Shown in pieces: positions 5,401 to 21,372 of a DNA stretch of 62,246 nucleotides (the first letter of the stretch is position 1; every line of letters begins with the position of its first letter). The translations under genes and the position numbers were made by a program. Source of the stretch: Deltaproteobacteria bacterium (lineage in GTDB: Bacteria; Desulfobacterota; Desulfobacteria; Desulfobacterales; JAABPS01); assembly GCA_019309685.1 (NCBI GenBank), contig JAFDFT010000001.1:1-62246 (forward strand). The letters run 5' to 3'. The notes beneath the pieces are model-generated. The model ran no database searches, was not told where the DNA came from, and saw only the letters and a list, made by a program, of their open reading frames with translations.

Positions 5401-8400
5401 AATCGATTGCCTGTTTTTTGATCGTGCCATTTGCAAGCTGTTGGCCGGTTGTGGCTTCTGTAACCGTCCACTCTTTATCATCCTCAGCTCTTGATATAAA
5501 AGCTTCTATCGGCTCGCCGGTCCAATCATCAGGCACAACGTCAACCTTTTTAGCATTGTCCGGGGCCGTCTCAAATTCTCCTCGAACATTTACATAGTAT
5601 TGTGATGGTTCAGGTCGGGGAGTCTCGACGGGCGTTTCCATTACGGGCGTTTCAGCTTCTTCAATATCGGTTTCTTTTAAGCCTATCGATTTCAACATAT
5701 TGTCTCTATCGACTTGCCGTTCTGTTGCGACTTCCTCCGTGACGTCCTCTCTTACCCTTGAAAGATCGTTTAATTGGTCTTCAATCTCTGACAACTGCTG
5801 TTCCTTGTCAGCTATTTCCTGGCCTTTACCGAACTTCTTATCTGCAAGCGTTTGATGTTCTGCAAGCTCTATTTCAAGCTCCTTAATATAATCCGTTTCC
5901 TTTTGTGGCTCTGCGAGTCTTTGTTCAATACTGTTATTAATAACAGTAGTTAATCCACCAGGTCCCCTTGTGGTTCTTCTAATAATAAGATCGCCCTCAT
6001 GCCTTAACTCAACCATTGTATCGTCAAGCACATCTTCATTAAGAGTGATAGGTGTACCAGGCTTTTTGAGAACCTCGTTAAGATTATACCACACCAGGGG
6101 CTCAAAGGTGACTTTAAGATCTAAGCCGTGGACCTTGGTATTAAAATAAACTTTATCCTGTCCGGCTTTCTGCCTTGCACGATAATCTGAATAGGAAATA
6201 CCCTTGAAGCTCTTTTCAATTTTACCCTTAATGTTATCCCATTCTTTCCGGAATTCCTTTATAAACTCTTTGCTGGTTAATTCCTCGCCTTTATATGTAT
6301 AGGTTTCAAGTTTTCCGGTCGGGAATATCGATTTAATCGTTTTTGCAACACCTTCTGCTCTAACAAGGTTTTCTTTTTGATTCGGGATATCGATCTCTTT
6401 AAGACTTTTTACACTGCGCCTGGCTGAAGATACCGCCCTTTCGTGGCTTGATTTAAGTATCCGTAAGTTTTTAAGATCAATTTCAAGATCATTCTTTGTA
6501 AACAAAAGAGGATTTCCGGAAAAAGCGGCTTGCATTTCTGCATAAGACACCTGTTCTTCGCCTAAAGGTTCGTCAAAGGTCCTGCCGTCTATATCTCCAT
6601 TAAGCATTTGATCGATAAACTTTTGCTTTTTCATCAATCGATCATACATAACAGAATCAAGAGTATTTTTAACACCATAGTTAAATATCTGCACTTCTGC
6701 GTTTTCGTTCTTTTCTCTTACTATCCTGCCGTTTCTTTGCTCAATATCCATTGGCCGCATGGGTGCGTCAAGATGGTGAGCTGCTATAAGCTTATTCTGG
6801 ATATTAACACCAATGCCAAGTTTGGCCGTCGAACCGATAATAAATCTTATCTTGCCGTCCCGGGCTCTTTGGAAAACAGCTTCCCTTTGAACATCGGTTT
6901 TAAGTTCTCCGATAATAGCAATCTCTTTGGCCTTCATTCCCTTTGCAATCAGCTTGTCTCGGATATCGTGATAGGCATTAAAGGTCTTGTCTGAATTTTG
7001 ATAGATATCAAGAAAGGCTATCTGTACGCTGTTATCTTCTGCCGTATCCTCATAGATCTGATAAATGTTTTCAATAGCGGTATTTAACTTGCTGCCAGGA
7101 TCATCTTTATAATGTTGTGGGTCGATCAGGCGTAAATCAACCGCAGCTTTCCGGGCCTGGCCAAAGAGGACAAGAGGAACGTGCCGCTGTCTCATTTTCT
7201 CCCTGCCTGTCAACTGCTCCCAATGTTCCCGGGTATCCCTTAATATTTCAATAAAGCCTGATAGGGCATTTGTACGCTCAACAACAACCATTTCAGGCTT
7301 GCCGGTTTTAATCTTTGGAAGAACAAGCCCAGCATCCTGGGTTAAAACAACATCAGACGCCGTATGGAACATGGTTAATAGTTCAGGACCGTTTACATAC
7401 TTATTGAATCTTTCGACCGATTTAAACGTCCCGGACTCGGTTTCTTCAAGCGCGACTGTGGTATCTCCAAAGTTTGCCGCGAAATCATCAAATAACGTTG
7501 CGTTATATTCTTCAAGCAGATCTGGTCGGATATATCTGATCATGGTCCAAAGCTCTGCGGTTGTGTTGGATATCGGCGTACCTGTGGCTAATATGATGTT
7601 CTTACCGCCGGTTTTCTGCCTGATATAATCGGCTTTTAAAAGTAAGGACGTACTGCGCTGTGCAGATCCCTGGTCAATCCCCTTAACCTGGCCCATTTTG
7701 GTAAAAAACTCTGAGCGTTTGTAATTATGCGCTTCGTCGATTAAAAGAGCATCAACGCCAAGCTGCTCAAATTTTAGGGCATCGTCAACGCGTCTGTTTA
7801 ATAGTTTTTCTAAATGCGCTTGTTTTCGTTTCTTAAGGGCCTTCATCTGCTTAACCGTTAAAGATCCCTTTCCCTCTGCCGCTTCGAATTCGTCAACGGT
7901 CGCTTCTATCTCGTCAAGTTGTTCCTGGACGAAAGCTGCCTCTCTTTCGGCATCGTCTGCAATACCGTCAAAGAATGAATGAGGCAATATAACAGCATCC
8001 CAATCGCCGGTAGCAATTTGAGAAAGTAACTTCTTACGGTTTTTACCCTTCCTCTGTCCGTCGCTGGGAATAAGGACTCGCGCTTGCGGGTAAAGCTTAT
8101 GAAATGATTTAGCATATTGCTTAATTGTGGCGTTTTGAACTACGATCAAGGGCTTTCTTGCGGTACCTATCCGTCGCATTTCCATGGCCAGGGTAACAAA
8201 AGAACCCGTTTTTCCGGTCCCTACACCATGGGAAAATAAGGTTGACTCCTGCAAACCTCTTGCAACTGCCTTCTTTTGTAACCAGCGCAGTTCCCTTTCG
8301 CGAGAAGCGTTCGGAAAATATTTAACGTCGGGTGGATCAAACGTTCTTAAAACATATCCGTTAAATTCCTCATTATATATTTTTGCTAAATCCGGTCCCC

Positions 8401-11400
8401 ACTTTTCGTGGCTTTTCGACCACTTTAAAAACTCCGCCTGAATTTCTTTCTGTTTCTCTGTGGCTGCGAGCGTGGCTTCTGCATTAAGGACTTTCGACAT
8501 TCCGCCTTCTGGATTCTGAACAGAATCATAAACCTTTGTTCTCTTTAGATTTAAAGCATCCTGAACGAGTACATGCCCTTTTACTCTCCCCGTTCCCCAG
8601 GTATTTACATTCTTTGCGTTATCGTGTCGGGATCTCGGCGAAACTTTCCATGCGGAAGTTTCTCTCGTTCGTGCCTGCTGAACTTCGGTATCAACCTCCA
8701 TGGTTGTTGATATGAATTGTTGGATAAGGTCGTTAGGTAGCCATGAGCTCCCCAGCTTGAAATAAATAAATTCTATGTCTAATTCTTCCGGCTGGACAGC
8801 TTTAAGCGCTTTAACGTTATGCTTATATTCTGGTTTTTCGCTCGCCTGCTGCTCAACAAGAATAAGCTTTTTCTTAACATTCCCGGAAAGATAGTTCTCG
8901 GGAGTCTCGATCATACCGTTTTCAGGGTTTAGATATCCAAGCTCCTGATCAATAACATCTTTATAAACAGCTTCTTTAGTCGATCCTGTAAGATCGGCAA
9001 TGAACTGAGTGTTTACTTTACCTTTATAAATTAAAGAAAGCGCTATCGCGTCTTTTACATTATCTGCTGTTTTAGGTTCTCTAAAAGGAAAAATGGTCCG
9101 CTTCGCGAATATGGCAGACTTTGTAAAAGAAACAATATTTACCTTGCGTTCCTGCCCCTTTTTGGCTCCGCTTTTAAATTTAGTGGTATGCTGCTTGACC
9201 GTTTCATCTTCCAGGGCATCAACCACAGGAAAGTCATTATCTATCTTTTGCAAGAAAGAGTTTGCAGGGGCGCCGACGTTTCCGTTCTTAGAAACGAAAG
9301 CATCGTAATCTTTGTTTAATTGTTTCCGTAATTTTGTGATTTCCGCGTCGGTTGCGTCCTCTTGCTGCATCCGGTCGATAATCTTTATAGTCGTGTCTTT
9401 TAATTTTAAATAATCCCTGGCCCTGCTTTCCCGGCCCTTATTATCGATTGCTTTAACCAGCTTACCTTTTGTGTTGTAAATTTTAGGCTCAACAAGGATA
9501 CCGTCCTCAACAACGCGAAACTTGCCGTCTTTTTCAAGCAGTATATTTTCTTTCGTGCCTATATCGGCATATTCCTTTTCGCCTTCTTCCACGATAGAGC
9601 CTTCACCGGCTATATCTTTTGGCAGGGTTTCTATGGCTTTTTTGATTTGCTCGGCAAGATCCCCTTTGTTTGGCAACAGGGTATACGTTTTTTCACCATA
9701 CATGGTCCCTTTTTTCGAGTGCTTCCCCATGACCATTTCAGGATGATCGACAAAATATTCATTTATAGGGACCGTATCTGATGCAGCACGACCGGACTTG
9801 ACTTCCTTTGTGATCCTGAAGTCTTTTCCCAATCCCTGCAATTCGTTGTCTTTTTTCCGAAAAATAAGAATATCGGTAACAACTTCGGTGCCAGCGTCCT
9901 TCTTAAACGCCGTTTCTGGAAGTCTTATTGCACCGATCAAGTCGGCTTTATTTGCAATATACTCTTTAACGTTACCATTTGTTGTTGAATCTAAGGTATA
10001 TCGTGAAGTAATCGCGATAACGAGGCCACCAGGTCGCACAGAATCAATCGAACGCGCAAAGAAGTAGTTGTGTATGCTCCAATCTGAGTAATCAGGATGC
10101 TTCTTGTCGTAGACCGGATATTTACCAAAAGGGAAGTTACTCACAACCAGGTCCGCGGAATTGTCGGGGATCCCCTTTGCATTTTCAAAGCCGGTTATTT
10201 GAATTCGAGCCTGCGGATATAGCTTTTCAAGTATTTTTCCTGTGATTGTATCTAATTCGACACCTACCAGGGCAGAATTATTGCGCATAGCTTCGGGCAT
10301 TAAACCAAAGAAGTGACCGACACCGGCAGCGGGCTCTAAAACAGTCCCGCCTTTAAAGCCGAAATGTTCGGCAATGTCCCAAATAGAATTGATAACCTTG
10401 CGTGATGTGTAATGAGCGTTTAGGGTGGACTCTGCGGCGCTGTCCCATTCTTCCTGAGTCAATAAGCCGTTAAGCCTGGGATGAAGGTGTCTTCCGTACT
10501 TGCTTTTCCATTCCTCGTATTTTTTAAGATCATCCCCATATCTACTGAAATAGTTTTCAGGCTTTTTGATATCGGAAGAATTCTTTAGGAAGTTGTCGTA
10601 TTTGCGGGTAAAAACCTTTTGAGCGAAAGCGCCCCAGCCAACATACTGAGCCAGGGCCTTCTTTTCTTCAACGGTAGGATTACGATTTTCGGATTCGAGC
10701 TGTTTAACAAGTCGAATTGCTTTTATATTGGTCTTGATTTTAGTTACGTCACCGCGCGGAAACATAAGGTCGCCCGCTTCGATAACGTGGTTTTGATCTT
10801 CTTTCTTTGTTAGGCTGTCATCGTCCCTAAGATTTGCAGTTCCAGCTCGTTCGCCAGGCTCCTGGGTGGATTCTGACCGCTTGCCGGGCCGTCCGACGGC
10901 GCCACTATCTTTGCGTACACCACTTCCTCGATCTGGTCTGGTTCCATCTTCCCCTGCAGGCGCAGTATCGATGTCAGTATCGACGACCTCTGCACTATCC
11001 GGAGCAATATCTGTTTGAGCTGGTCCCGGTCTTCCTGAAACAGCTTCCGGGTGTCCTGCGGGTGGTTTTCCAGTAGCCATTGCAGATGGCTTTCCCACTC
11101 CGGGTAGTTCTCCGGATTCTCTATCTCCAATTCCTCCGGGTTCAGGTTCTTCAATTCCTGTAGTGACAGTTCCGACGCCTTCAACACCTTCAACGATAGA
11201 TCCACCTGTGGCCTCCTTTCCCATTTCTTCTTTTATAAATTTCTCAATATACACCTTTCCCTTTAAGGAAAGAGTATCAATCATAATTTTAACAAATTCA
11301 GATCCACTTTTACCCGCTGCGATAGCTGCTTTCAAGGCTTTGTGTAAATGAGGCTTTATCTGTTCCCATTTATCCGGGTTGAATTCTGTAGAAAATTCAC

Positions 11401-13411
11401 CCTTTTGGCCAAGGATATCGCTAACAGCCTTCAGCTCGTCGGCAAGGACGGTAAGGTTGTCAACAACTTCTTTGCCCTTAATCTCTCTTTCTTGCCTTTT
11501 AAAGTCGGCAAGTAGTTCGGTGGGGGTTGAATCTTCTACAGGTTTGGTTATCTCTCGTATTCCGGGTGATACGGATTCTTGGTCTTCTTCGGTAGGTGAT
11601 TTCCGGGTTTGGTCCACCGGCTTGCGCTGAACAGTCTCTTGCTCATATCCTCGCTGAAGGTCAGATTCGGATCCCGGTTTAATAACCCGGACACGCCCTC
11701 GAATTTTCGGGAGTCTTTCTTCAATTTCTTGCTCAGTTTTTTTAGGTTTTCTTTCATAGCGTATTACCCCCTTAGCTTCAGTCTTAATATAATCCAATTT
11801 TTTGAATTTGTCAAACAAATTCTTGTCTAAAACCTCAGTTTTTCCTTTTTCATGTTTAAATACTTGAATAGAGTCCCGACCGTCCACATTATTATCAGAC
11901 ATTTCAAAGATAACGTTATGATTATCTTTGTATTCCTTAAACAACTGTCGAAACGTAGGAAGTGAATAATTATAGGCCTTTACAGAGGCACTCAATGGAA
12001 CTTTACGGCCAACAACTTCGCGACCTTCTGCCCGGGCTTCTTCTTCCTGGGCCATTTTACGCAATCTTACTCTAACCTGAGAAGTTTCCGCGTCAATGTC
12101 AGTAAAGCCAATGTGAGCTTCCCCACCTTGTTCAAGTACCTTTTCTATATATCCTTTTGCTTTTTCATAATTGCCTAAAAGCGAATCATAAGCTACATGG
12201 TGTCCCTTTTTTATGGCTCTATTTAAGATTACGCCTGAAATCTTTTTTGCTTCTTCGTGATATGCGACAGCTTCTTCGCCCTGGTCGTGGCCTAAATCAA
12301 CTTTTACCTGATCAGCATTAGGATCGACAAAAACTTTCAGGTCTATCCCCATATCAATAGAGCCGCTTGTTTTACCCGCACCAGGGAGCCCACCCGTTAA
12401 AACGATAGTTTGTGTTTCTCCAAGGTCTTTAGCTGTGGGCTTGCCCTTTAAGTGAAGATTAAACAGCCGTCTTTTCTCTTGCCGGGTAATTTTGACCGGT
12501 GCCAACTCGGTTGCAAGCTCTATTTCCTCGATAACAGCGTCAAGGATCTCGTTTAATTCGCCAAGTTTGGTCCGGCCAGTAACCTTTTCTATGGCTTTAA
12601 GGATAATATCTTTAAGCTGGCCCCATAGGGTTTGAGACTCATTTTTAACGCCTTTGGCTCCGATTGAATTCAACCAGTTAGCAAAGGTTTTATTGGTAAG
12701 ACCGTATGTTGCGAGCTCGTCAACTTTTGCTCTGCCGGTATCTATCTCTGTGAATATTTTTTTAACATATGTCGGGGCGGTATCAACGTGTGTTTTTAAT
12801 GTATCGTAAAATTCAACGAGGTCTTTATGGAGCGTTTCATAGGATCCGCTTTGTGTCTTGATAACGTTATTAATAAGAGCATGAATTGCCTCATGCGCGA
12901 GCGGCTGGTCAAATTTGTCGGCGGTTCTTTCTGCCTTTTCGAGTAGGCCCCTGTTAATAAATATTCTGTTCGTCCTGTTACTGTAAACTGCGATAGAAGT
13001 CGGCCTTGCCTTTATATTATTAACAACGCTGATCTTTACGTCGTATTTTTTAATGGCATTAAAAAGCGCTCCGTATTGTGTTGGAACTCCAACCTTGCCA
13101 AAAAAGGCTTCAACAAAATCTCCAACGGGAGATACAGTTTTAACCTCGTCCACCGTTTCATTGAAAGCTGTGAAAAAGTCGGCTTTCTTGACCGGCGCTA
13201 TCGGCTTGTCCGACATGTTCTTTCTGATAAACTCAATAATATCAACACGATCTTTTTGAGCCTCTGCCAGTTTTTCCCCGACAACCTTAAGCGCTGCCTT
13301 CCGATCTTCCATGCCTAATTCGACAAGATCATCGACCAGGCCGTTAATTTCGGTTCGTTCGTCCCTCGATATCTTAGCCAGTTTGAAACATTTATTAGAT
13401 ATCATCGTCAA
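2480..13411 (-). CDS. 3643-aa polyvalent protein: HExxH module, zeta-toxin-like P-loop kinase, disordered linker, N6-adenine MTase, SNF2/DEAH helicase, hydrophobic C-terminal region (DarB-like, probably virion-delivered)
   Basis: One uninterrupted ORF. Motifs: HEAIH 12881..12895; GGLPGAGKTS 12365..12394; P/G/E/D-rich linker 10802..11209; YVGWGAF; LEPAAGVGHF 10310..10339; SNFPFG 10124..10141; GVGTGKTG 8204..8227; DEAH 7727..7738; QRNGRIVR 6716..6739. Confidence 0.9.
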   Translation of the reverse strand: MTMISNKCFKLAKISRDERTEINGLVDDLVELGMEDRKAALKVVGEKLAEAQKDRVDIIEFIRKNMSDKPIAPVKKADFFTAFNETVDEVKTVSPVGDFVEAFFGKVGVPTQYGALFNAIKKYDVKISVVNNIKARPTSIAVYSNRTNRIFINRGLLEKAERTADKFDQPLAHEAIHALINNVIKTQSGSYETLHKDLVEFYDTLKTHVDTAPTYVKKIFTEIDTGRAKVDELATYGLTNKTFANWLNSIGAKGVKNESQTLWGQLKDIILKAIEKVTGRTKLGELNEILDAVIEEIELATELAPVKITRQEKRRLFNLHLKGKPTAKDLGETQTIVLTGGLPGAGKTSGSIDMGIDLKVFVDPNADQVKVDLGHDQGEEAVAYHEEAKKISGVILNRAIKKGHHVAYDSLLGNYEKAKGYIEKVLEQGGEAHIGFTDIDAETSQVRVRLRKMAQEEEARAEGREVVGRKVPLSASVKAYNYSLPTFRQLFKEYKDNHNVIFEMSDNNVDGRDSIQVFKHEKGKTEVLDKNLFDKFKKLDYIKTEAKGVIRYERKPKKTEQEIEERLPKIRGRVRVIKPGSESDLQRGYEQETVQRKPVDQTRKSPTEEDQESVSPGIREITKPVEDSTPTELLADFKRQEREIKGKEVVDNLTVLADELKAVSDILGQKGEFSTEFNPDKWEQIKPHLHKALKAAIAAGKSGSEFVKIMIDTLSLKGKVYIEKFIKEEMGKEATGGSIVEGVEGVGTVTTGIEEPEPGGIGDRESGELPGVGKPSAMATGKPPAGHPEAVSGRPGPAQTDIAPDSAEVVDTDIDTAPAGEDGTRPDRGSGVRKDSGAVGRPGKRSESTQEPGERAGTANLRDDDSLTKKEDQNHVIEAGDLMFPRGDVTKIKTNIKAIRLVKQLESENRNPTVEEKKALAQYVGWGAFAQKVFTRKYDNFLKNSSDIKKPENYFSRYGDDLKKYEEWKSKYGRHLHPRLNGLLTQEEWDSAAESTLNAHYTSRKVINSIWDIAEHFGFKGGTVLEPAAGVGHFFGLMPEAMRNNSALVGVELDTITGKILEKLYPQARIQITGFENAKGIPDNSADLVVSNFPFGKYPVYDKKHPDYSDWSIHNYFFARSIDSVRPGGLVIAITSRYTLDSTTNGNVKEYIANKADLIGAIRLPETAFKKDAGTEVVTDILIFRKKDNELQGLGKDFRITKEVKSGRAASDTVPINEYFVDHPEMVMGKHSKKGTMYGEKTYTLLPNKGDLAEQIKKAIETLPKDIAGEGSIVEEGEKEYADIGTKENILLEKDGKFRVVEDGILVEPKIYNTKGKLVKAIDNKGRESRARDYLKLKDTTIKIIDRMQQEDATDAEITKLRKQLNKDYDAFVSKNGNVGAPANSFLQKIDNDFPVVDALEDETVKQHTTKFKSGAKKGQERKVNIVSFTKSAIFAKRTIFPFREPKTADNVKDAIALSLIYKGKVNTQFIADLTGSTKEAVYKDVIDQELGYLNPENGMIETPENYLSGNVKKKLILVEQQASEKPEYKHNVKALKAVQPEELDIEFIYFKLGSSWLPNDLIQQFISTTMEVDTEVQQARTRETSAWKVSPRSRHDNAKNVNTWGTGRVKGHVLVQDALNLKRTKVYDSVQNPEGGMSKVLNAEATLAATEKQKEIQAEFLKWSKSHEKWGPDLAKIYNEEFNGYVLRTFDPPDVKYFPNASRERELRWLQKKAVARGLQESTLFSHGVGTGKTGSFVTLAMEMRRIGTARKPLIVVQNATIKQYAKSFHKLYPQARVLIPSDGQRKGKNRKKLLSQIATGDWDAVILPHSFFDGIADDAEREAAFVQEQLDEIEATVDEFEAAEGKGSLTVKQMKALKKRKQAHLEKLLNRRVDDALKFEQLGVDALLIDEAHNYKRSEFFTKMGQVKGIDQGSAQRSTSLLLKADYIRQKTGGKNIILATGTPISNTTAELWTMIRYIRPDLLEEYNATLFDDFAANFGDTTVALEETESGTFKSVERFNKYVNGPELLTMFHTASDVVLTQDAGLVLPKIKTGKPEMVVVERTNALSGFIEILRDTREHWEQLTGREKMRQRHVPLVLFGQARKAAVDLRLIDPQHYKDDPGSKLNTAIENIYQIYEDTAEDNSVQIAFLDIYQNSDKTFNAYHDIRDKLIAKGMKAKEIAIIGELKTDVQREAVFQRARDGKIRFIIGSTAKLGIGVNIQNKLIAAHHLDAPMRPMDIEQRNGRIVREKNENAEVQIFNYGVKNTLDSVMYDRLMKKQKFIDQMLNGDIDGRTFDEPLGEEQVSYAEMQAAFSGNPLLFTKNDLEIDLKNLRILKSSHERAVSSARRSVKSLKEIDIPNQKENLVRAEGVAKTIKSIFPTGKLETYTYKGEELTSKEFIKEFRKEWDNIKGKIEKSFKGISYSDYRARQKAGQDKVYFNTKVHGLDLKVTFEPLVWYNLNEVLKKPGTPITLNEDVLDDTMVELRHEGDLIIRRTTRGPGGLTTVINNSIEQRLAEPQKETDYIKELEIELAEHQTLADKKFGKGQEIADKEQQLSEIEDQLNDLSRVREDVTEEVATERQVDRDNMLKSIGLKETDIEEAETPVMETPVETPRPEPSQYYVNVRGEFETAPDNAKKVDVVPDDWTGEPIEAFISRAEDDKEWTVTEATTGQQLANGTIKKQAIDLARSKIDQAGPEKMKENIAYGMEKGGRSPWAADDLDSMIDEEDLDQDIKDLLNRHMPEAKKGLKKLKDPSHKKIHRESKGLFKYAQDRFGKGFVDKDMKWYDRTFNNPYWAGKKFWFMKDAVGVEIKAAETRSTELFNDYEGDLGELQDEYGKWSKAQKKELQDLIWKWDDRRMPKKAVPTDWNKPAEQGEDIEIDPEHYREVKAFLEKSRVNPAVIQGFITIRKKLDEKFVDIDRTMRIEDLDSSKIREYRANINKANNYFPHRRTGSGYIQIFNKEKEIVVFREHFSLTKDRILPINRKASARAEQWLKDAVAKGKLKGSVSDYRISDPGPLKELPDEVFFQIPIEGIQQVVSSAGKDLATSRVQYEADRLYNKEGKTRKEALDLARRRLTADMEDALSKAVADTFKARGWGKHGIHRKNIPGHEKEDIFGILFDYLSGYAGFKTKITRTKAHHEILVNVDAKKYPAGYKHLSKYVKDMLANQDKTDRAVDTLRGIFFVKYLGFVIKSGMVNLTQNVVMAAPMLGLHTKGAHRKLSKAMVDTRRALTSKNAWFGKEVDYKHITKNEQQALHEMVESGATMDLFLRELKGNMPGVGIGKHFKKVIDKSGIFMQVAEKFNRASTGLAAYRVGVKEKGMSHDDAVAFAKTVVYDSHFLYGKANMPTGMRGGDAQKIARAAYTFRSFSHNYLLAMRHLFFNQRGGKKAFARSLRNLFLMGGLTSLPFFKVFTDILFAAIGEDDEDALTMARKMVPDQWMKDLIVYGLPGVVGADFSGSLSIEVPKNVYDIIGVPYAAYEDSINMYKSLKSGNYYRAAAETPFTPLSVRNAMRGLELYTIGHRTRSGRDINAVGKAGPRKITTKEFVQKSFVGLQPTSVSKGFASYRATKKMQTSISEKRRSFADRFVNALRREDYKATQAIMQEIAKWNEKAAKVNRPHRIIDIEGMIESRMKPGFNNIPENQRWKALEIQKQWE

Positions 13412-13625: not shown

Positions 13626-14217
13626 GCTCCTGGGCCAAAATGCCCGCCGTTAAGTCTGAGATATCGGCGCCGTCTTTATCCTTCATTTCTTTGTTTAAAA
13701 TGGGCGTTATATCGTCTGCAGGATCATAAATAATCAGCTCCCATGTAGATCCGTTTTTAACCAGAGCCTTTTTGCCGTCAATTACATCTTTCAGGTAATC
13801 GGTATCTAAAACCATTAGTTGATCATGTTCCTCTGTGGTCAGCCCGCTGCCGACGGAAATAGTCTGCTTACCTACTGAATTGTTGCTTAATATGCTAATC
13901 CCGTTTGACGGGATATAAACATCAATCAAGTTGTTATCGTAGTCAGTTAGAATCACATTATAATTATTGCCTGTAAAATCAAACGTGTATCCGTTTATAA
14001 TTTCCACGGACGGCGTTTTCGCTATCCCGGATAATGTGACAGTCTCGTACCAATTAGCTATTCGTAAGGCCCATAGCCCATCCGTGAACGACCACTCCAA
14101 ACGCCTGAGTTCTTTGTGTACGTCCACCAGGCTAAGGGCATAATTATTACCACTCAAAAAAGCTAAATCGCTTTGAGGAATGGTAAATATCTTAGATACC
14201 CAATCAACTGAGTACAT
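13609..14217 (-). CDS. hypothetical virion/tail-module protein (202 aa)
   Basis: Track ORF coupled to the upstream gene (shared base 14217). No motif recognised. Confidence 0.5.
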   Translation of the reverse strand: MYSVDWVSKIFTIPQSDLAFLSGNNYALSLVDVHKELRRLEWSFTDGLWALRIANWYETVTLSGIAKTPSVEIINGYTFDFTGNNYNVILTDYDNNLIDVYIPSNGISILSNNSVGKQTISVGSGLTTEEHDQLMVLDTDYLKDVIDGKKALVKNGSTWELIIYDPADDITPILNKEMKDKDGADISDLTAGILAQELANSV

Positions 14218-15959
14218 TAAACCTCGGCTTCCATCGTGCCAGAGAAGCTAAACCCTCCGGATCCAATCGTTCCAGATATAGCGATAAACTTATCAACCCC
14301 GGAAGCATCACCGTGGCGAATCCAGCCAACAACATCAATATCAGACGAATACACCAGGGAGTTTGAAAGCGATTTTGTGGTCCCGCCGCCTGTCATTGCG
14401 TCATAAAAGATGCAGTGAAAGCCTGGATCGCTTGCGACAATTGCATCATCAGTAACAGTTCCAACTAAATTGAATGTATCGGTACCGGAAGACCATGAAT
14501 CATACTCATAAAACTTATAGGTCGAGGTCCCATCTTTCAGTACGCCGAACCATCCTGTTTGTGGAGTATCCGGCGAAATGGTTTCATTAACCCGAATTAC
14601 TGCCGAGGTAACAATCTCACCGACACAGGTATAAACCGTATAGTCTGGCGCATTAAGAACAGCATCTTTAGGCGCAAGAAGTACATGCAGGGTGTCCGCT
14701 GCGTCCAGAGCCTCAACGGTCCCCTGTATGGCCACATTGTTTGGAGGCGTAACCGTATTACCGTCTAAATCTTTAAATGAATCTACCGAGCCGATCTCGT
14801 TAGAGTCAAAACCGATACCATACGCACCGATCCAGGCACCTGTAAACTGAGCCAGGTGATTAGGGTTGGTAGTAAGTTTAACAGCATCGGCGTCAAGTAC
14901 CGCTGTGGCTGAACCGTTACCGGTGATGGTTAAACCGCTGGCAGGGGGCACCCCTGTATTCAAGTGCAGAATATAACGAGCCGTAGAGCCACCCGCTAAG
15001 GCGTCAACGCCAACTAAGTTGCCAGTACCCGCCGTTGCGCCTGTACCCCAGGAGCATGTTTCATTTTGAACGTGGGTGCCTGCACCCGACACAATCGAAC
15101 AGTCATAAACGCGCCCGGTCCATAAATCTCCATCGACGCCATAGAGTGTGTCAGTGGATCCGTCAACAAGGATAGCTTTAACAAACTCATATAAGGCTTT
15201 TTTAGATGATTGCGGAGAATACGACCACTCGCCCAAAAAGGGCTTGTTCCCGTTTCCGTCAAGATCAAGGAGGTTGTACCCTTCTGATTTAGAAATCCCG
15301 TATGCCTGTACGGTACCTAATACAGTGGTATTTTGTGGATCATCTTCTGTAATAATAGAGGCAACCGATTCACCTAAAGCCAGCCCTGTTTCCCACACTG
15401 CGTAAGTTTCCAGCCAGGTAGAGGCTTTAACATTAATCAATAAATTATCAATATCCACACCCGTATCGCGGCCCTTAACCATGATACGCAATAGAATATT
15501 AGAGGCCGTTTGATTCTTGCCTGTACCCCAATGTGAAGTCAGCTCGACATTATCCTGGATGATTTTCAGCGGGATGGGTGTCGAATTAGAACCGTAAACA
15601 ATTACACCGTAATAGATATCATCGCCGTCATTTTGGGACACTGAGCCGCCGAAATGCTGCTCCATGACCGTATCCGTCACCGTGTAGTTGATACCATAGT
15701 CGGTCGTGTGATCGTTCAGTGTAACAATCTTGCCCAACGCTTCTTCCTTTGACGGGTTAGGGAAAGACAGGTTGACTTCATCATCACCGGAAATTATAAA
15801 ATCCCAAGCCAGCTTTTGCAAAGCTCGGTTGATCCACTTAACGTGAAACGTATGAGTCCCTGTAACAAAGGTTATCGCCCCCGATGCTGCCACTTTGTAT
15901 TGTGCGAGCCAGGCTGCGATTGCTGTTGCGCTGTCAGCATCAGTATCATAAATAGACAT
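14217..15959 (-). CDS. tail fiber / receptor-binding-like protein (580 aa)
   Basis: G/T/S/N/D-rich beta-type composition, located in the tail block. No enzymatic motif seen. Confidence 0.5.
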   Translation of the reverse strand: MSIYDTDADSATAIAAWLAQYKVAASGAITFVTGTHTFHVKWINRALQKLAWDFIISGDDEVNLSFPNPSKEEALGKIVTLNDHTTDYGINYTVTDTVMEQHFGGSVSQNDGDDIYYGVIVYGSNSTPIPLKIIQDNVELTSHWGTGKNQTASNILLRIMVKGRDTGVDIDNLLINVKASTWLETYAVWETGLALGESVASIITEDDPQNTTVLGTVQAYGISKSEGYNLLDLDGNGNKPFLGEWSYSPQSSKKALYEFVKAILVDGSTDTLYGVDGDLWTGRVYDCSIVSGAGTHVQNETCSWGTGATAGTGNLVGVDALAGGSTARYILHLNTGVPPASGLTITGNGSATAVLDADAVKLTTNPNHLAQFTGAWIGAYGIGFDSNEIGSVDSFKDLDGNTVTPPNNVAIQGTVEALDAADTLHVLLAPKDAVLNAPDYTVYTCVGEIVTSAVIRVNETISPDTPQTGWFGVLKDGTSTYKFYEYDSWSSGTDTFNLVGTVTDDAIVASDPGFHCIFYDAMTGGGTTKSLSNSLVYSSDIDVVGWIRHGDASGVDKFIAISGTIGSGGFSFSGTMEAEV

Positions 15960-15973
15960 TTAATTCTCCTTTT

Positions 15974-17644
15974 CTAAATTGGTTTTAATCTTATTGTTAA
16001 ACTGAACCCTGAAGATGTTATCTCGCCACTAAAATTCTGCTGCACAAAATCAGGAGCCGATATATTAAATTCTCTTGCCCATCCGACTATATCAACGGGC
16101 GTCGCGCCGCTGTATGTTGTTGCCGCTATCCCACTGGCATTGCAGGCTATACTTAATATAGGGCTCTTGTCTGAGTCTAACATTACGCGCACTCGACAAG
16201 TTGTGCCAATCGGTAGCCCCGTATCATCATTAAGCACCGTTACGGATACCGGGACAGCTCCGACGAATAAAGTATCTGCATTTGTCCCTGTGTTATTGGC
16301 TGTTGACGGGTTCGATTCGTTGGCTTTATTAAGAACTAACACTTCGGTCGCTGTTCCTGTTCCCCCTGCATCTGTGCCTGTTGCTACGAACTTTGTCCCT
16401 ATATTATTGTCGGCTGCTCCAATCGTGGTGAAATCTGAGCCGCTTACTGTTAAAATCTTATATCCTCGATCAATGACAAAATTGGTATCTGTAATTGTTG
16501 CAGCATTGTCGGAGTTTAAAACGTCATAATCGTTATTGTCAAAAGTGTCACCATCTGAGCCATAAGAACCAACGGCGTCATATTCAATCGCCGCTGGATC
16601 GTTTGTGACGTCGGTATTGTTTACATAGATATTATTTTTAAAGTTGGTTACTACCGCCGGGGCAAGTACAGCCGCTAAGGTCCCGGTATAACCACCAATA
16701 GTATTGTTTTGAAAAATAGATAGTCCTGGTGTTATTTGCCCGCAATTATTAAAGACATTACTTGTTATATTTTCGCCTGCCGCAAATATAGCAGAGCTGG
16801 CCTTTTCGAATTGAACGCCTGTTAAATCAAAACTGTTAAGGTTCGTGTCGCTGGCATCGATGAAGAAGTCCTGCGCTGCTGCTGCTCCATAAGAGCCACC
16901 AGCTATATCGATATTACAGGCACTTCCCTCGAAAGTAACGCCATACAGGGTTGAATTAACAGGCAAATCTTTAAACTGGACTTTTTGCCCGGACGCAAAA
17001 TATGTTGTAGTTGCGCCGTTACCGACTATGACGGCCCCTGCGAAAAAATATATATCGTCTATTCTTGTTACAATCCCAAAGGCATCAACCAAATCAAGAT
17101 CCGCAACATGACTCCAATCAATGTCGTCCCCACTTGTGCCGCCTGTGACAGTGTACCCGTCGCCATAGGTCCACGCATCTAACCATAAATTAGTCGCGTT
17201 TTTGGGCCGGGTATGAACATTCATTCTGATACCGATTCTTGTGATAGTCGAATGAACGGCTCCATTATCTTCTGTGGGTGTCGAGGTAGTATCAACAACA
17301 AATTGTTTCCATCCACCGCCGTAAGTATCTGCGCCGCCCACTGTCCAATAGTCCTCGTTAGTTCCATCAGAGACAAAAATCTGTATCCCGTCAAGAGCTT
17401 CACTCTGTAAATACGCAGTTATGGTGTTGTTCATCCAGAGTCTTAGATGTTCCCCGCCCGACAAATCCCAGGAACCATCAACCCATACCTCTTGTGAGGC
17501 GCTGGGAGTGAAAATGCAGGCAACGGAATTGTCGCCCTGGACCTTATTATCCGCCTCTAAAACGAACGTGTCACCGTCCCACTGTGCGGTTGATTCAGCG
17601 TTATCGATAACCGTAGGCTTATTTGTCAATACTGCTATGGCCAT
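15974..17644 (-). CDS. tailspike-like protein with probable right-handed beta-helix (556 aa)
   Basis: Recurrent N-rich rung-like motifs: VFNNCGQI, FQNNTIGG, FKNNIYVNN. Confidence 0.5.
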   Translation of the reverse strand: MAIAVLTNKPTVIDNAESTAQWDGDTFVLEADNKVQGDNSVACIFTPSASQEVWVDGSWDLSGGEHLRLWMNNTITAYLQSEALDGIQIFVSDGTNEDYWTVGGADTYGGGWKQFVVDTTSTPTEDNGAVHSTITRIGIRMNVHTRPKNATNLWLDAWTYGDGYTVTGGTSGDDIDWSHVADLDLVDAFGIVTRIDDIYFFAGAVIVGNGATTTYFASGQKVQFKDLPVNSTLYGVTFEGSACNIDIAGGSYGAAAAQDFFIDASDTNLNSFDLTGVQFEKASSAIFAAGENITSNVFNNCGQITPGLSIFQNNTIGGYTGTLAAVLAPAVVTNFKNNIYVNNTDVTNDPAAIEYDAVGSYGSDGDTFDNNDYDVLNSDNAATITDTNFVIDRGYKILTVSGSDFTTIGAADNNIGTKFVATGTDAGGTGTATEVLVLNKANESNPSTANNTGTNADTLFVGAVPVSVTVLNDDTGLPIGTTCRVRVMLDSDKSPILSIACNASGIAATTYSGATPVDIVGWAREFNISAPDFVQQNFSGEITSSGFSLTIRLKPI

Positions 17645-17648
17645 TTAT

Positions 17649-18053
17649 TTATAATTCCTCAACCACAATCTGTTTAATGTAATTATACCTATCCCTGATT
17701 GTGGTAAATCTCCATTTGCGCTTTTTAGGGTTTCCAACTGCTACCGGCGCCAATTGCGTTACCGGTTCCGGAGTTTTATTTAGATCTTCCTGTATGGCCT
17801 GTACGATCTGTGCAACCGTAGCGGTTGATTCAGACATTTTATCTGCTGAAACTGCGAGGCTTTGGGCCATATCTATTACAACGTTTGCAGACTTCAACAT
17901 AACGCCCGATGTCAGGTCCGGCTTTTTCTCCTGGACTATAACCGGCTTTTTCGGTTTTGTTTTTATGCTGCTCTTATTCCTTGTTACTTCAAGGCCTTTC
18001 TTTTCAACCTTCTTCTTAAGAGCCGCTTGCGACATTCGTTTCATTAAATACAA
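17649..18053 (-). CDS. hypothetical basic protein (134 aa)
   Basis: Track ORF that overlaps the end of the upstream gene by 10 nt. Confidence 0.5.
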   Translation of the reverse strand: MYLMKRMSQAALKKKVEKKGLEVTRNKSSIKTKPKKPVIVQEKKPDLTSGVMLKSANVVIDMAQSLAVSADKMSESTATVAQIVQAIQEDLNKTPEPVTQLAPVAVGNPKKRKWRFTTIRDRYNYIKQIVVEEL

Positions 18054-21000
18054 TCCCTTAAGATTTTGAGTGAAAGTATCCTCTCGTCGATATCTTCAAG
18101 AGCTTGCCCGGCATCCTCTTTCACTTTAACAACTTCGCCGGTTTCGGAGATCTGAACTTCTGATTCATACTTTAAGCCCTTGCCATGCTCGGGCGTGATT
18201 TCTATTTGTTCCCGTTTTAGGAGCGCCTTGGCTTCCTGTGGGGCCTTTTCTGCGACCTTTTCCGTTTTAGGTGTCTCGGGTAGGGCCTTTCTTTGTAAAT
18301 CAGGATAATCTTTAAGGACTGATTCTGGAACGGGTTTGCCCTGGTTAATAGCCGTATGCACAGCGTTTTTGTGAAAGGTATTCTCAGTATAGGACGTTGC
18401 CCCCTTCCGTGGCTTTCCGTGTAGCGATTCATATTCAGAAAGTGTCATTTCCCACGTTTCTTTGCCCTTCTCAGAGGCCGGAGGTTGGACGATCTTTTCT
18501 GCCTTAGTTTTCTCCAATTTATCTGTTGGAGATCTCCAACTTTCTGTTGGATATCCAACAGGTTTTTTCTGTTTTCCCCAGGAAAGCCAGTTCTTAAACT
18601 TCTCAACTGACATTTCAGTAATATCACCAAAGCCCTGCCAGCCTTCTTCATAATTGGCAAGATAACCCTCTTTGGCAGCTTCTTCACTTGAAAAGCCGGT
18701 CATTACCTTGTGCTCGTCAAACTTGCCTGTTCCTGGTTCAACCTGATCAACAATATAAACATTAGGACTTTCAGTATCGGGACCGACAAAGGTATCAATC
18801 TGATCACCGTCTTTGCCTTCGGTACGGTTGAAATATCCGTAATGATGTTTCATTTCGATTGACCATTTTTTCCCGTCAGGAGCAACGCCTTTGCGCTGAG
18901 ATCCTTTCGGGTTTTCAATGGCAATCTCCATGCCCTGAATATGGATTGCCCCTTTTAAATAATTTCCTGCTTGCTTTTGTTTTTCAGATGGGTTAATATC
19001 AACCTTAATTTCTTGATCACCAATTTTAGAGGAAGCTATATGTCTACCATCAGGAAGTATGTCTGTTTTAATTGTGGAATCACTTTTAGTAGAAATTGGA
19101 GTTCCAGGAAAGGTCAAGTCCGCTTTTTCTGTTGCGTCTCTTGCAGAAATTCTTTTGATTGTGGAAGAAAGAGAATCAACGAAACTGATTACAGGCTTAG
19201 GTATAGATACGTCACTCGGAATGGAAAGCCTATGGGTGAGCATCGTTTTGTTATGGAGCAAACCATCGGGCGTCCACTGGCTTCCGACGAGGCCGTTCAT
19301 CACATCAACGGGGATAGTCTTGATAATCGCCCTGAGAACTTGCGGATCGTTGAACGAGGATCTCACAGAAGAAAGTATCATCTGCTGTCTGTCCCGCTTG
19401 AGCGAATTAAAACTCTCAGACTGCAGGGTTTTAGTATTAGAGCGATTGCCAAAAAGATTGGAGTTAGCAAGAACACTATCACCAACAGACTCGTCGACCT
19501 TGGATTTCCTCTCTGTAGGCCGTAATTCAATAGTCGTACCCGCACCCGCAAGAGCTACATCAGTCTTTTTGGGTGCGGGCACTTTCGCTACGCGGCGATC
19601 TGCTTCAGAGATTACAGGCGGTTGCCCTTCGTCTCTTTTCTTTTGTTGTTCCTGGATATCAGTTTTAACGGTAGCCCAATATTTCTCATTTGCTTGCCGT
19701 TCTGCTTCCTCTGCAACTTCGACCTGTTGTAATGTCGTTGGTCTTGCTCCATACTTTTTCCGGCCCTTGGCAATCTCGCCTTCTTTTCGCTGCTGTTCAA
19801 TATTAGCTTCAACGCCCTTCCAGTATTTATCTTCCTCGCGCTTTTCTGTAATGAATTCACCGGCTTGTGTTATTTGTTCCTCGATACCGCCCAGCTTTTC
19901 AACCCGCTGATCTTCCTCTTGCTCCGCTTCAAACTCTTTGATTTTCTCTTGATTACGCCTTCTTGTCTGAAAGTCTGTAGTCGTTGGTTCTTCAACCGTC
20001 GGCTTTTCGGCCTTCGTGGGTTTTGTGGTTGAAAGGACCTCGTTTATTGCGTCGTAAAGAATATCATCTTTCGGTAGGTCTTTAAGCTCGCCTTCTAATT
20101 GTTCGCGAGTAATTTGCCCACCGTCAAGAGCCTCTTTTAATTGCTCTGTTTTCCTGGTCAGGTCGGTTTCTTTCTCGTCTTTATTGGCTTTAAGTTCTCT
20201 TTTATAATCGGCAATAACAAAGGGAGATCCTGCAACCTGGACGCCACCGGTAAGCATAGCACCACCAACGGCTCCCACCTTCATAGCCTTCTTTGCTTTT
20301 TTATGAATCGCCGGAAATTCGTTTAAAACTATCTTGGCTATTTCTGCGCCGGTCTTCTCATGGTTAGCTGCATAGAGATTGGCTATTTCATCAGGATATT
20401 GCTGTAAATATTCCTCTAAGCCTTCACCTGTGATATTGGCACCCAAAACACCTATGAACTGTCTGAGGCGTTTTCCAAAACCCATTTTGGCCCCGGTCTT
20501 GGAAAAGATCGTCTTCAACATTTTGATTTGAAAGATAGATCCGGCCTGTTCCAAAGGTGTATTTATTGCAGAGGTAAGCAGGCCAATTTCCCTTGCAAGC
20601 TCTTTATCAATACCAGCATCAACCAGCTCTTTGCGTTTCTGCCCGTATATCTGATTAAACATCGATATCGTGCCAGCGGGGATATTAAGGGCAGTTAAGG
20701 CCATACCAGGACCGAATCTTGACACACCGCCTGCAGCGGTTTCAATTATTCCTGAGCTACCAGGTAGAGGTTCCGGCAATGTTTCTACCCATTTTTCATA
20801 AGTCTCTATGCTCTCGTCCCTGATTTTTACAGAATAATCTCTTTTTAGGTCCTCGCGTTCCCTGGAAGTTAATGGAGATCCCTTGTCTTTTTCTGCTTGC
20901 CGCAGCTCTTTACCAAAAAGAGCTTTTTCGGTATCTGATAAAACGTTAAATGCAATTTCCGGCTTTCTTAATTCATACGCCTGGCTCGGTCCTTCTTTTT

Positions 21001-21367
21001 TCTTGTATGGCTCAGGTTCGCTTTTTGCATAGCTTTTCATGTGTTCCGCTTCACCTATCGCACCCTGGGCCATATCTCCTAACCCCTGGGCCGCATTGCG
21101 AAACATCTGTGTGCCAACTCTTTTAAATGTGAGTTCTGGGACTAATCCTGTAGCTGGGTCAACTTCGGCATAATCGGACTCTCCTTGTTCTTCGCCTTCG
21201 AACAAAGATTCGCCAAATTCCATGAAGGCACCGGCCATTTGTTTGCCAAGGCCCACAGCCTTTTGAGGCTCTTTCGGCTCAGGTTCTTCCCCTTCCCAGG
21301 TTATCTTTGTTGGATCTATTTCAGGGGGTTCGTTGTACCACGTTATTTTCTTTGGATTAATTGACAT
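18044..21367 (-). CDS. 1107-aa virion-module protein with a C-terminal inorganic-pyrophosphatase-like domain; carries an antisense HNH gene inside it
   Basis: Continuous ORF with an E/K-rich coiled N-part. The C-part IENPKGSQRKG...YGYFNRTEGKDGDQIDTFVGP resembles the PPase core pattern (E-PKGS ... YG-IP-T ... DGDP-D-). Confidence 0.75.
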   Translation of the reverse strand: MSINPKKITWYNEPPEIDPTKITWEGEEPEPKEPQKAVGLGKQMAGAFMEFGESLFEGEEQGESDYAEVDPATGLVPELTFKRVGTQMFRNAAQGLGDMAQGAIGEAEHMKSYAKSEPEPYKKKEGPSQAYELRKPEIAFNVLSDTEKALFGKELRQAEKDKGSPLTSREREDLKRDYSVKIRDESIETYEKWVETLPEPLPGSSGIIETAAGGVSRFGPGMALTALNIPAGTISMFNQIYGQKRKELVDAGIDKELAREIGLLTSAINTPLEQAGSIFQIKMLKTIFSKTGAKMGFGKRLRQFIGVLGANITGEGLEEYLQQYPDEIANLYAANHEKTGAEIAKIVLNEFPAIHKKAKKAMKVGAVGGAMLTGGVQVAGSPFVIADYKRELKANKDEKETDLTRKTEQLKEALDGGQITREQLEGELKDLPKDDILYDAINEVLSTTKPTKAEKPTVEEPTTTDFQTRRRNQEKIKEFEAEQEEDQRVEKLGGIEEQITQAGEFITEKREEDKYWKGVEANIEQQRKEGEIAKGRKKYGARPTTLQQVEVAEEAERQANEKYWATVKTDIQEQQKKRDEGQPPVISEADRRVAKVPAPKKTDVALAGAGTTIELRPTERKSKVDESVGDSVLANSNLFGNRSNTKTLQSESFNSLKRDRQQMILSSVRSSFNDPQVLRAIIKTIPVDVMNGLVGSQWTPDGLLHNKTMLTHRLSIPSDVSIPKPVISFVDSLSSTIKRISARDATEKADLTFPGTPISTKSDSTIKTDILPDGRHIASSKIGDQEIKVDINPSEKQKQAGNYLKGAIHIQGMEIAIENPKGSQRKGVAPDGKKWSIEMKHHYGYFNRTEGKDGDQIDTFVGPDTESPNVYIVDQVEPGTGKFDEHKVMTGFSSEEAAKEGYLANYEEGWQGFGDITEMSVEKFKNWLSWGKQKKPVGYPTESWRSPTDKLEKTKAEKIVQPPASEKGKETWEMTLSEYESLHGKPRKGATSYTENTFHKNAVHTAINQGKPVPESVLKDYPDLQRKALPETPKTEKVAEKAPQEAKALLKREQIEITPEHGKGLKYESEVQISETGEVVKVKEDAGQALEDIDERILSLKILRDCI
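19040..19525 (+). CDS. HNH homing-type endonuclease (161 aa), antisense within 18044..21367
   Basis: SD AGAGGAAG (19028..19035) lies 4 nt before the ATG. Zn ribbon CFNC...CCVSC. HNH core GEHRFVMEQTIGRPL..EAVHHINGDSLDNRPENLRIV. C-terminal HTH IRAIAKKIGVSKNTITNRL. Confidence 0.7.
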   Translation: MSTIRKYVCFNCGITFSRNWSSRKGQVRFFCCVSCRNSFDCGRKRINETDYRLRYRYVTRNGKPMGEHRFVMEQTIGRPLASDEAVHHINGDSLDNRPENLRIVERGSHRRKYHLLSVPLERIKTLRLQGFSIRAIAKKIGVSKNTITNRLVDLGFPLCRP

Positions 21368-21372
21368 AATTT

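Follow-up and report, generated by a model that had tools for sequence, protein, structure and literature searches.

A probable mobile HNH homing-endonuclease gene carried in reverse, codon for codon, inside an open InPase virion-protein gene

How can a complete nuclease gene sit inside another gene, on the opposite strand, and leave the reading frame of that gene open from end to end? The question is raised by a 62,246-nucleotide (nt) contig of a Deltaproteobacteria bacterium (JAFDFT010000001.1 of assembly GCA_019309685.1), the whole of which is referred to here as the window. Its minus strand carries, at 18044..21367, an open reading frame (ORF) for a protein of 1107 amino acids (aa) that contains an InPase domain and is of the virion or polyvalent type. 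This host ORF remains open across a plus-strand gene for an HNH homing endonuclease at 19040..19525. In our judgment, the latter is probably a mobile HNH homing-endonuclease cassette that lies in reverse, codon for codon, inside an InPase virion-protein gene. The anatomy of the locus, an insertion polymorphism, the avoidance of antisense stop codons, the recurrence of the arrangement and the conservation of both reading frames bear on this reading.

The plus-strand gene starts with an ATG at 19040, ends with a TAA at 19523-19525 and encodes 161 aa with a zinc ribbon, an HNH_3 core and a C-terminal helix-turn-helix (HTH). A Shine-Dalgarno-like AGAGGAAG, read from the sequence at 19028..19035 of the plus strand, lies 4 nt before the ATG, and GGAGG or GAGG motifs like it occur in about half of the related loci. 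The CxxC pairs are residues 9-12 and 32-35. Pfam recognised HNH_3 (PF13392) at residues 68-109 (38.3 bits, cut-off 24.8) and HTH_38 at residues 121-149 (30.3 bits, cut-off 27), more than 10 PHROG HNH families matched the protein (best E = 3.5e-15), and a protein database search returned 510 homologues. Among 46 HNH homologues, H87, H88, N96 and N100 never vary and H68, H109 and H113 hardly do; the HNH motif is retained in all nested copies that were aligned or displayed. An AlphaFold model based on these 46 homologues (mean predicted local distance difference test score, pLDDT, of 85.2) shows two strands (84-88 and 101-105) and then a helix (106-113). A sequence search of PDB with the protein gave just weak Zn-ribbon and HTH matches, and tblastn against the whole window found no second copy. 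A preliminary description of this locus, made from the letters alone, had proposed a complete gene with its own Shine-Dalgarno sequence, CxxC pairs, HNH core and HTH, and had left the HNH identity to a profile search; Pfam, PHROG and the sequence agree on all of this, with HNH_3 above its cut-off.

The host frame and the HNH gene are codon-aligned, since (21365-19040) is divisible by three. Read on the host strand, the TAA of the HNH gene is Leu615 and its ATG is His776, and the antisense reading of the gene (19040..19525, minus strand) makes up host residues 615-776 (LRPTERK...LPDGRH). The InPase domain (Pfam PF18823, E = 7.6e-57) occupies host residues 795-928 (18584..18985, minus strand) and begins 19 residues past the insert. 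Matches of the host protein in PHROG are to minor head, virion structural and DarB-like proteins. Pfam gives InPase alone for the 1107-aa protein, and the inserted segment matched none of the Pfam LPD families. The insert also differs from its flanks in composition, with 31% S+T+I and 9% E+K versus 15-17% and 21-29%, respectively. The open aligned phase, the S/T/I-rich insert between E/K-rich flanks and the position of the insert just before a PPase-like domain had all been pointed out before, and the coordinates, residue counts and InPase match bear them out. As a separate observation, the plus strand has a second, probably spurious ORF of 283 aa (19059..19910), which shares DNA with the HNH gene and with the antisense of the host ORF and is read in a different frame; that frame is also free of stops within 19040..19525.

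Three features keep the host frame open: the insertion is of 486 nt, a multiple of three; the start and stop of the nuclease gene are read as His and Leu; and TTA, CTA and TCA codons are lacking. A nuclease gene in sense orientation would truncate the host protein, because its own stop codon would end it. In the aligned antisense phase a start codon is instead read as His or Gln and a stop codon as Leu or Ser. Stops then arise from TTA, CTA and TCA codons alone, so that they can be avoided by synonymous codon choice and nothing else. The HNH gene uses none of these three for its 12 Leu and 12 Ser residues, whereas in the other genes of the window TTA and CTA account for 25% and 8.5% of Leu codons and TCA for 24% of Ser codons. 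With the protein sequence fixed and the codon usage of the window, 6.9 antisense stops are expected and the probability of none is 2.6e-4; it falls to 4.8e-5 with the codon usage of the host ORF itself and is estimated at about 3e-3 after correction for the smaller number of A-ending codons in the HNH gene (26 observed vs 35 expected, outside Leu and Ser). The preliminary description had remarked on the missing codons and on the commonness of TTA elsewhere, and had suggested a codon test, which is significant at P = 2.6e-4. No window of 162 codons in the other genes (0 of 9824) is free of aligned antisense stops. A recent origin from GC-rich DNA does not explain the avoidance, because the GC content of the HNH gene (44%) is close to that of the window (43%).

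The same state recurs in related loci of similar composition, where the probability of an antisense frame without stops is 9e-6 (L028), 7e-6 (L022), 1.6e-3 (L023), 3.5e-3 (L027) and 6.5e-4 (L031). Summed over 10 loci of the window's clade, including L028 at 38% GC, log10 P reaches -26, a value that is an upper bound on significance because the ten loci are related. HNH_3 relatives on viral contigs of 40-46% GC contain 7-11 aligned antisense stops. The notion that we are looking at an ordinary HNH gene with an antisense frame that happens to be open, or at an assembly chimera, is strongly disfavoured, and we give it practically no weight. The codon-aligned antisense is generally the most open alternative frame, and it is open with a probability of about 0.7 in relatives of 62-65% GC; at 43% GC, however, the probability is 5e-5 to 3e-3, and both junctions must be in frame as well. 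Moreover, 40 HNH_3 genes from genome loci with less than 50% GC included no nested one, zero stops being found in two short ORFs only, and the arrangement recurs independently in contigs from many studies.

Comparison with an allele that lacks the insert defines the cassette. Among homologues of the host protein the nearest is P0001, which is 975 aa long and has no insert. Its gene is on L001, a contig of 64.7 kb, which shares synteny with the window at nt identities of 77-92%. Homology to L001 stops at window position 19527 and resumes at 18939, leaving 587 nt unaligned in the window versus 101 nt in L001. The length difference of 486 nt is exactly that of the HNH ORF including its stop, so the related genome lacking the segment, which the preliminary description had suggested looking for, does exist. 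The upstream junction, in the sense of the host, lies at 19526..19527, where the match to the insert-free allele breaks off, 2 nt from the HNH stop codon. No host-protein homologue aligns with host residues 635-792, and the antisense segment is missing from P0001 as from all the others. On the other side, the flank between the insert and the L001-like InPase part (host residues 777-809, IASSKIGDQEIKVDINPSEKQKQAGNYLKGAIHI; 18940..19039, minus strand) is like that of carriers of the insert and not like L001. Its 28 residues between the insert and QGMEIAIENPKG, namely IGDQEIKVDINPSEKQKQAGNYLKGAIHI, resemble the carrier alleles VDINPTEAQKQAGNYLKGAI and not L001 PEPTVAQQEAGNYQKGHVSV. In the protein alignment the switch to L001-like sequence falls between KGAIHI and QGMEIAIENPKG, at QGMEI, and downstream of the carrier-like residues the window is almost identical to L001. 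Over the InPase domain, identity of the window is 86% to the insert-free L001 and 47-63% to the carrier loci. The flank at 18940..19039 is therefore likely a co-conversion tract or the 5′ region of the cassette, and the pattern is as expected if the cassette and about 100 nt of donor flank had been copied into an L001-like allele.

Other loci add signs of mobility. The other boundary of the cassette is the HNH stop codon in every locus, and the host flanks there are mutually unrelated. The insertion sites differ, lying upstream of InPase, within InPase or in proteins that have no InPase; in the other loci that do have it, the HNH gene is found 4-86 aa upstream of InPase or inside it. The InPase N-terminal motif, NPTEAQKKAG, flanks the insert on both sides in L030 (around 3944-4480) and L031 (around 3847-4359), which looks like a target duplication or a cassette carrying its own copy of the target. 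The conserved N-terminal motif of InPase is a recurrent neighbour of this HNH clade, and the DNA that encodes it is likely the target of the nuclease.

If the insert were taken out of the host product, the open frame would have another meaning. The insert might be an intein, might be skipped by ribosomes or might belong to a group I or group II intron that holds a nuclease gene in antisense, possibilities that are conceivable in principle but very improbable here. T4 gene 60 pairs mobA with a bypass element, and nuclease genes in antisense orientation exist in nuclear group I introns, for example in the ribosomal DNA of Porphyra (PMC2585584). In window positions 18000-21400, however, no Rfam family matched at E <= 1, including the ribozyme cores of group I and group II introns, and folding of the minus-strand RNA against shuffled sequences revealed no extra structure (z = +1.5). 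Of the 587 nt without an alignment to L001, the HNH ORF takes up 486, hence there is no room for a ribozyme core. Pfam found no Hint or intein domain in the 1107-aa protein, and the junction residues TTIE/LRPT and DGRH/IASS are without intein signatures. In addition, an insert that is spliced out or bypassed needs no stop-free antisense in the host frame, yet such a frame is conserved.

It is likewise improbable that the insertion simply splits or inactivates the host gene, the InPase part being made by internal initiation or being dispensable and the open frame being incidental. Working genes split by nuclease genes are known, with Aeh1 nrdA/mobE as a case cited in two papers (PMC8351571; PMC2988022), and members of the same HNH clade lie between separately called genes in L004 and L012. 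Nevertheless, there are 0 stops in 162 antisense codons versus about 7 expected, the stop-free state is also present in other loci of 38-47% GC, and the flanks are in frame at every nested locus. No in-frame ATG, GTG or TTG occurs between the insert and M813, and M813 is itself inside InPase, past its conserved AGNYxKG motif. Nor does the layout resemble genes in pieces, since the host is one ORF of 1107 codons. With neither a removal element nor a start before M813, a complete InPase could presumably be produced by read-through alone.

The case in the window is not an isolated accident but one member of a large clade of antisense, codon-aligned HNH genes. Using the antisense peptide (residues 615-776) in an exhaustive HMMER scan at E <= 1e-3, we obtained matches to 156 protein clusters, 39 of them at E <= 1e-10, and most were giant phage polyvalent proteins; among the 150 clusters listed, 121 are at least 1000 aa long, and the match is nearly always internal. 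A word-indexed protein search with the same peptide gave no match, which reflects a failure of sensitivity given the 156 clusters found by HMMER. In 21 of 21 other loci whose DNA was examined, an intact HNH gene lies codon-aligned on the strand opposite. The enclosing frames at these loci are open for about 1000 to more than 2800 codons or are called genes of 1089-3334 aa, and both host flanks are in frame in every nested locus. Hosts include P0131 in L022 (1089 aa, InPase after the insert), P0132 in L023 (3334 aa, InPase and RadC), P0159 in L032 (3146 aa, InPase split by the insert), P0149 in L033 (1296 aa, a single ORF with two nested HNH genes) and P0133 in L034 (2635 aa, LPD37 and no InPase). 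Domains of the host proteins as a group are InPase, LPD1, LPD37, LPD38, MuF_C, ddrB-ParB, RadC and GGDEF.

Searching by the HNH protein avoids ascertainment via the open frame. Among viral and metagenomic sequences, all seven new loci found in this way (L024 and L026-L031) are nested, in frames of 1014 to more than 2349 codons, and in six of the seven InPase follows 4-19 residues past the insert. In GTDB genomes, the eight loci with full-length similarity (L036-L041, L047 and L048) are nested in frames of about 1100-2800 codons, and more distant HNH_3 genes are not nested. Nested loci span 38% (L028) to 70% GC. A protein database of 5.8 billion clusters contained un-nested relatives only (L004, L012 and L005), and the absence of the nested HNH genes from it fits gene callers that report the longer ORF alone. 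Against GenBank phages, Megablast with the locus gave no match, tblastn with the antisense peptide gave none among 50,697 phages, and tblastn with the HNH protein gave relatives at <= 40% identity only. Thus far, the arrangement is found in metagenomes, metagenome-assembled genomes and one isolate genome only. The isolate is Aromatoleum anaerobium LuFRes1 (L047; NZ_WTVG02000039.1, about 298.6-306.9 kb), in which an antisense HNH gene of 191 codons is nested in a frame of more than 2100 codons, presumably within a prophage.

Several of these loci have features of their own. The host ORF of L033 (501..4391) has different intact antisense HNH genes opposite nt 2415-2810 and 3552-3926, and P0134 and P0161 contain two antisense-type segments each. 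InPase is split by an antisense-HNH segment in L032 (P0159), L037, P0154, P0156, P0164 and P0165, and likewise in P0169, P0192, P0215, P0232, P0234 and P0237; since the domain is in two parts, the insert in those proteins lies inside a folded domain and is not a linker. Immediately downstream of its giant ORF with the nested HNH gene, L034 has a separate, sense-oriented HNH_3 + AP2 gene (8405..8908, plus strand), and thus two nuclease genes in different arrangements. In the un-fused loci L004 (3840..4496, minus strand) and L012 (2827..3531, minus strand), an ORF of its own still runs through the antisense frame. The stop of this ORF in L004 (3840-3842) overlaps the first base of the ATG of the called InPase gene (3840), and in L012 its ATG comes right after the stop of InPase; these junctions hint at translational coupling but may be due to chance at 62-65% GC. 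The open antisense frames of L004 and L012 were not counted as evidence, as P is about 0.7 at this GC content. We also rejected matches to Mycobacterium phage 'DNA methylase' genes as instances of the same arrangement, since they are on the same strand as the annotated gene. One of these, in Mycobacterium phage Bipolar (L035; NC_028823.1, 46390-48396), is a same-strand HNH-like match within an annotated 'DNA methyltransferase' gene, and represents a sense-strand HNH domain or fusion, unlike antisense nesting.

Both readings of the shared DNA show signs of selection. The HNH frame appears clearly to be under purifying selection, as substitutions in it follow the order of codon position 3 > 1 > 2 (47, 22 and 72 differences at positions 1, 2 and 3 between the window and L022). 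Nested copies are 47-77% identical to one another in the HNH frame and 32-58% in the antisense, with a mean column entropy of 1.13 versus 1.54, and the HNH residue is clearly the better conserved in 89 columns. The antisense residue is better conserved in 23 columns, as opposed to 5.6 +/- 1.5 under a null of HNH selection only (maximum 13 in 500 resamplings), and nine antisense columns are invariant versus 0.2 under the null, although these two-frame statistics ignore the kinship of the loci. For example, antisense Gly81 is constant because HNH position 82, whether S, P or T, is always an NCC codon. At conserved HNH residues, nested copies differ from one another by 0.54 at four-fold synonymous sites, as against 0.66-0.69 when nested and free-standing copies are compared and 0.76 when free-standing ones are compared with each other. 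For the same locus pairs, this difference is 0.527 in the HNH gene versus 0.664 in the adjacent, singly coding InPase, the HNH value being the lower in 28 of 36 pairs. AlphaFold, given 25 homologous segments, predicted an eight-helix domain for the antisense reading, with pLDDT of 86-96 over residues ~20-130 and a predicted template modelling score of 0.68. Both frames appear to be under purifying selection in this clade, and the antisense reading is thus probably tolerated, and possibly a folded domain, and not junk. The preliminary description had spoken of an in-frame antisense passenger without an intron or intein, tolerated as a linker. The first part is supported; the second is probably too weak in view of the antisense conservation and the helical model.

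A number of observations weigh against our reading. Most nested examples are in DNA of 55-70% GC, in which chance alone is expected to leave the antisense frame open (P of 0.1-0.7), and the statistical case therefore rests on 5-6 loci of lower GC that are related by descent. The divergence of HNH and that of the adjacent InPase roughly co-vary across carrier loci, which also fits long co-inheritance with occasional loss, as in L001. The lower synonymous divergence could partly reflect relatedness or constraint at the RNA or DNA level. Foldseek searches of PDB and BFVD at E <= 0.001 returned nothing for the HNH model, leaving it without a significant link to solved HNH structures (I-HmuI, 1u3e, was second at E = 0.34), and no neighbour for the antisense model, a prediction that has no negative control. 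A scan for consensus promoters and terminators found no promoter upstream of the HNH gene. A hypothetical weak promoter, TTGCTT-17 nt-TAATAT, can be read from the sequence at 18971..18999 of the plus strand, below the threshold of that scan; L023 and L027 share the pattern, and variants of it occur in other carrier loci. This candidate falls on the antisense of the InPase N-terminal motif (DINPSEKQKQ), and its conservation cannot be separated from conservation of that motif at the protein level. Finally, expression of both products, translation through the insert, cleavage and homing are inferred from sequence.

Taken together, some of these points would suit a domesticated or relic nuclease, that is, an inactive remnant whose antisense helical domain has been exapted, or a stable antisense overlapping gene for a nuclease that benefits the phage. 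We regard this as unlikely, albeit deserving of serious thought. The co-varying identities of HNH and InPase would fit vertical co-inheritance, the antisense is conserved beyond the HNH-only expectation and is predicted to fold, and no recognisable promoter was found upstream. On the other hand, all 22 nested HNH ORFs examined are intact, with motif residues conserved in the aligned copies, and HNH is the more conserved frame. The insert is present in one and absent from the other of two genomes that are 77-92% identical, with a donor-like flank; insertion sites vary and one ORF holds two copies. Phage homing endonucleases typically have the Zn-ribbon/HNH/HTH architecture seen here. We therefore favour a mobile nuclease cassette that is carried in reverse within the host gene.

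The habitats known for homing-endonuclease genes are group I and group II introns, inteins, intergenic sites, insertions that split genes, fractured genes and the T4 gene 60/mobA case. To our knowledge, none of these keeps the host frame open by a backward reading of the nuclease gene. Like I-HmuI-like enzymes and the mob genes of T4 and Aeh1, the window gene is for a small HNH nuclease equipped with DNA-binding modules and lies next to or within a conserved phage gene. It also resembles free-standing phage HNH genes in its sporadic presence among close relatives and its co-conversion-like flank. Those genes, however, are intergenic or split a gene on the same strand, whereas the window gene is antisense to a host ORF that is neither split nor terminated. 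Inteins and introns similarly place a nuclease gene inside a protein-coding gene without destroying it, but their insert is spliced out and the nuclease is normally on the same strand; here the insert is reversed and apparently stays in the host protein. The T4 gene 60/mobA cassette is on the host strand and relies on a 50-nt translational bypass. Fractured genes consist of a split intein and a nuclease gene, all on one strand (Dassa et al., 2009; PMC2677866). As in both of these systems, the cassette of the window brings with it a device that preserves the function of the invaded gene; unlike a split intein or a bypass, this device works at the level of codons, through phase alignment and three avoided codons.

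Other comparisons concern the strand and the host. The intron nucleases of the Porphyra type share with the window a nuclease ORF opposite the strand of the host gene, but they are in spliced introns of rRNA genes with no host frame to keep, whereas the host frame is kept here. As in antisense overprinted genes of viruses, both strands are read over about 160 codons with signs of selection on both. In classical overprinting a new ORF arises over a resident gene; in contrast, the older frame here is the mobile nuclease, the new reading is the host segment, and the antisense nuclease reading is repeated in many different host proteins. The hosts are of the kind described as InPase polyvalent phage proteins, which reach thousands of residues (Iyer et al., 2017; PMC5512222), although the inserted segment matches no Pfam LPD family. 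The words 'antisense', 'opposite strand', 'homing' and 'intein' do not occur in that paper. The preliminary description knew of no precedent, and our full-text search of the open-access literature also found none for an antisense, in-frame nuclease gene, an absence that is not proof. Hence, the widespread antisense nesting arrangement appears to be undescribed.

These observations can be joined in a model. Ribosomes would translate the host mRNA through the insert, yielding the 1107-aa protein with an extra segment of 162 residues before InPase, and the nuclease would be made from its own ribosome-binding site, perhaps with the help of the candidate weak promoter at 18971-18999. In mixed infections, the nuclease may cut insert-free alleles near the conserved N-terminal motif of InPase, and repair would then copy the cassette and about 100 nt of flank into the cut allele. 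Because avoidance of stops is nearly free in GC-rich phages (P of about 0.7), this lifestyle may have arisen there, and it could then have been kept by selection in AT-richer phages such as that of the window. Polyvalent proteins may tolerate an extra module because they are strings of independent domains. We see the chances as evenly balanced for a bolder proposal, in which antisense, codon-aligned residence in giant phage ORFs that are read through constitutes a fourth, thus far unrecognised habitat for HNH nucleases, next to introns, inteins and the spacers between genes, and the reverse reading has by now become an independently folding helical domain.

Elsewhere in the window, the minus strand at 2480..13411 carries an ORF of 3643 aa that has no second nested HNH gene within it. 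The syntenic gene of L001 (3641 aa) contains Zeta_toxin, an SNF2-related helicase and other domains and is thus a classic phage polyvalent protein. SU10_adaptor domains on L001 suggest a podophage. Synteny with L001 is interrupted at window 13851..17648 (L001 13345..18270) and over the first ~450 codons of the 1107-aa gene. The former block contains ORFs of 556 aa and 580 aa, possibly for tail fibres; in the latter (window about 20022-21367), just 59 nt align with L001.

Were the model correct, strand, phase and three avoided codons would suffice for selfish nucleases to settle in coding sequence, without any machinery for splicing. On the bolder proposal, about 160 codons would specify a structured protein on each strand, and overprinting on a mobile element would give rise to new protein domains. 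The arrangement would also imply an annotation blind spot, in which the enclosing ORF is called and the nested HNH gene is not, so that nested nuclease genes would be systematically missing from protein databases wherever callers give the long ORF only. The isolate carrier, A. anaerobium LuFRes1, makes the idea directly testable. Many independent cases of extended dual coding in antisense, and perhaps of domains born de novo, are available in this system, and it suggests a route by which nucleases may drive the shuffling of domains in phage polyvalent proteins.

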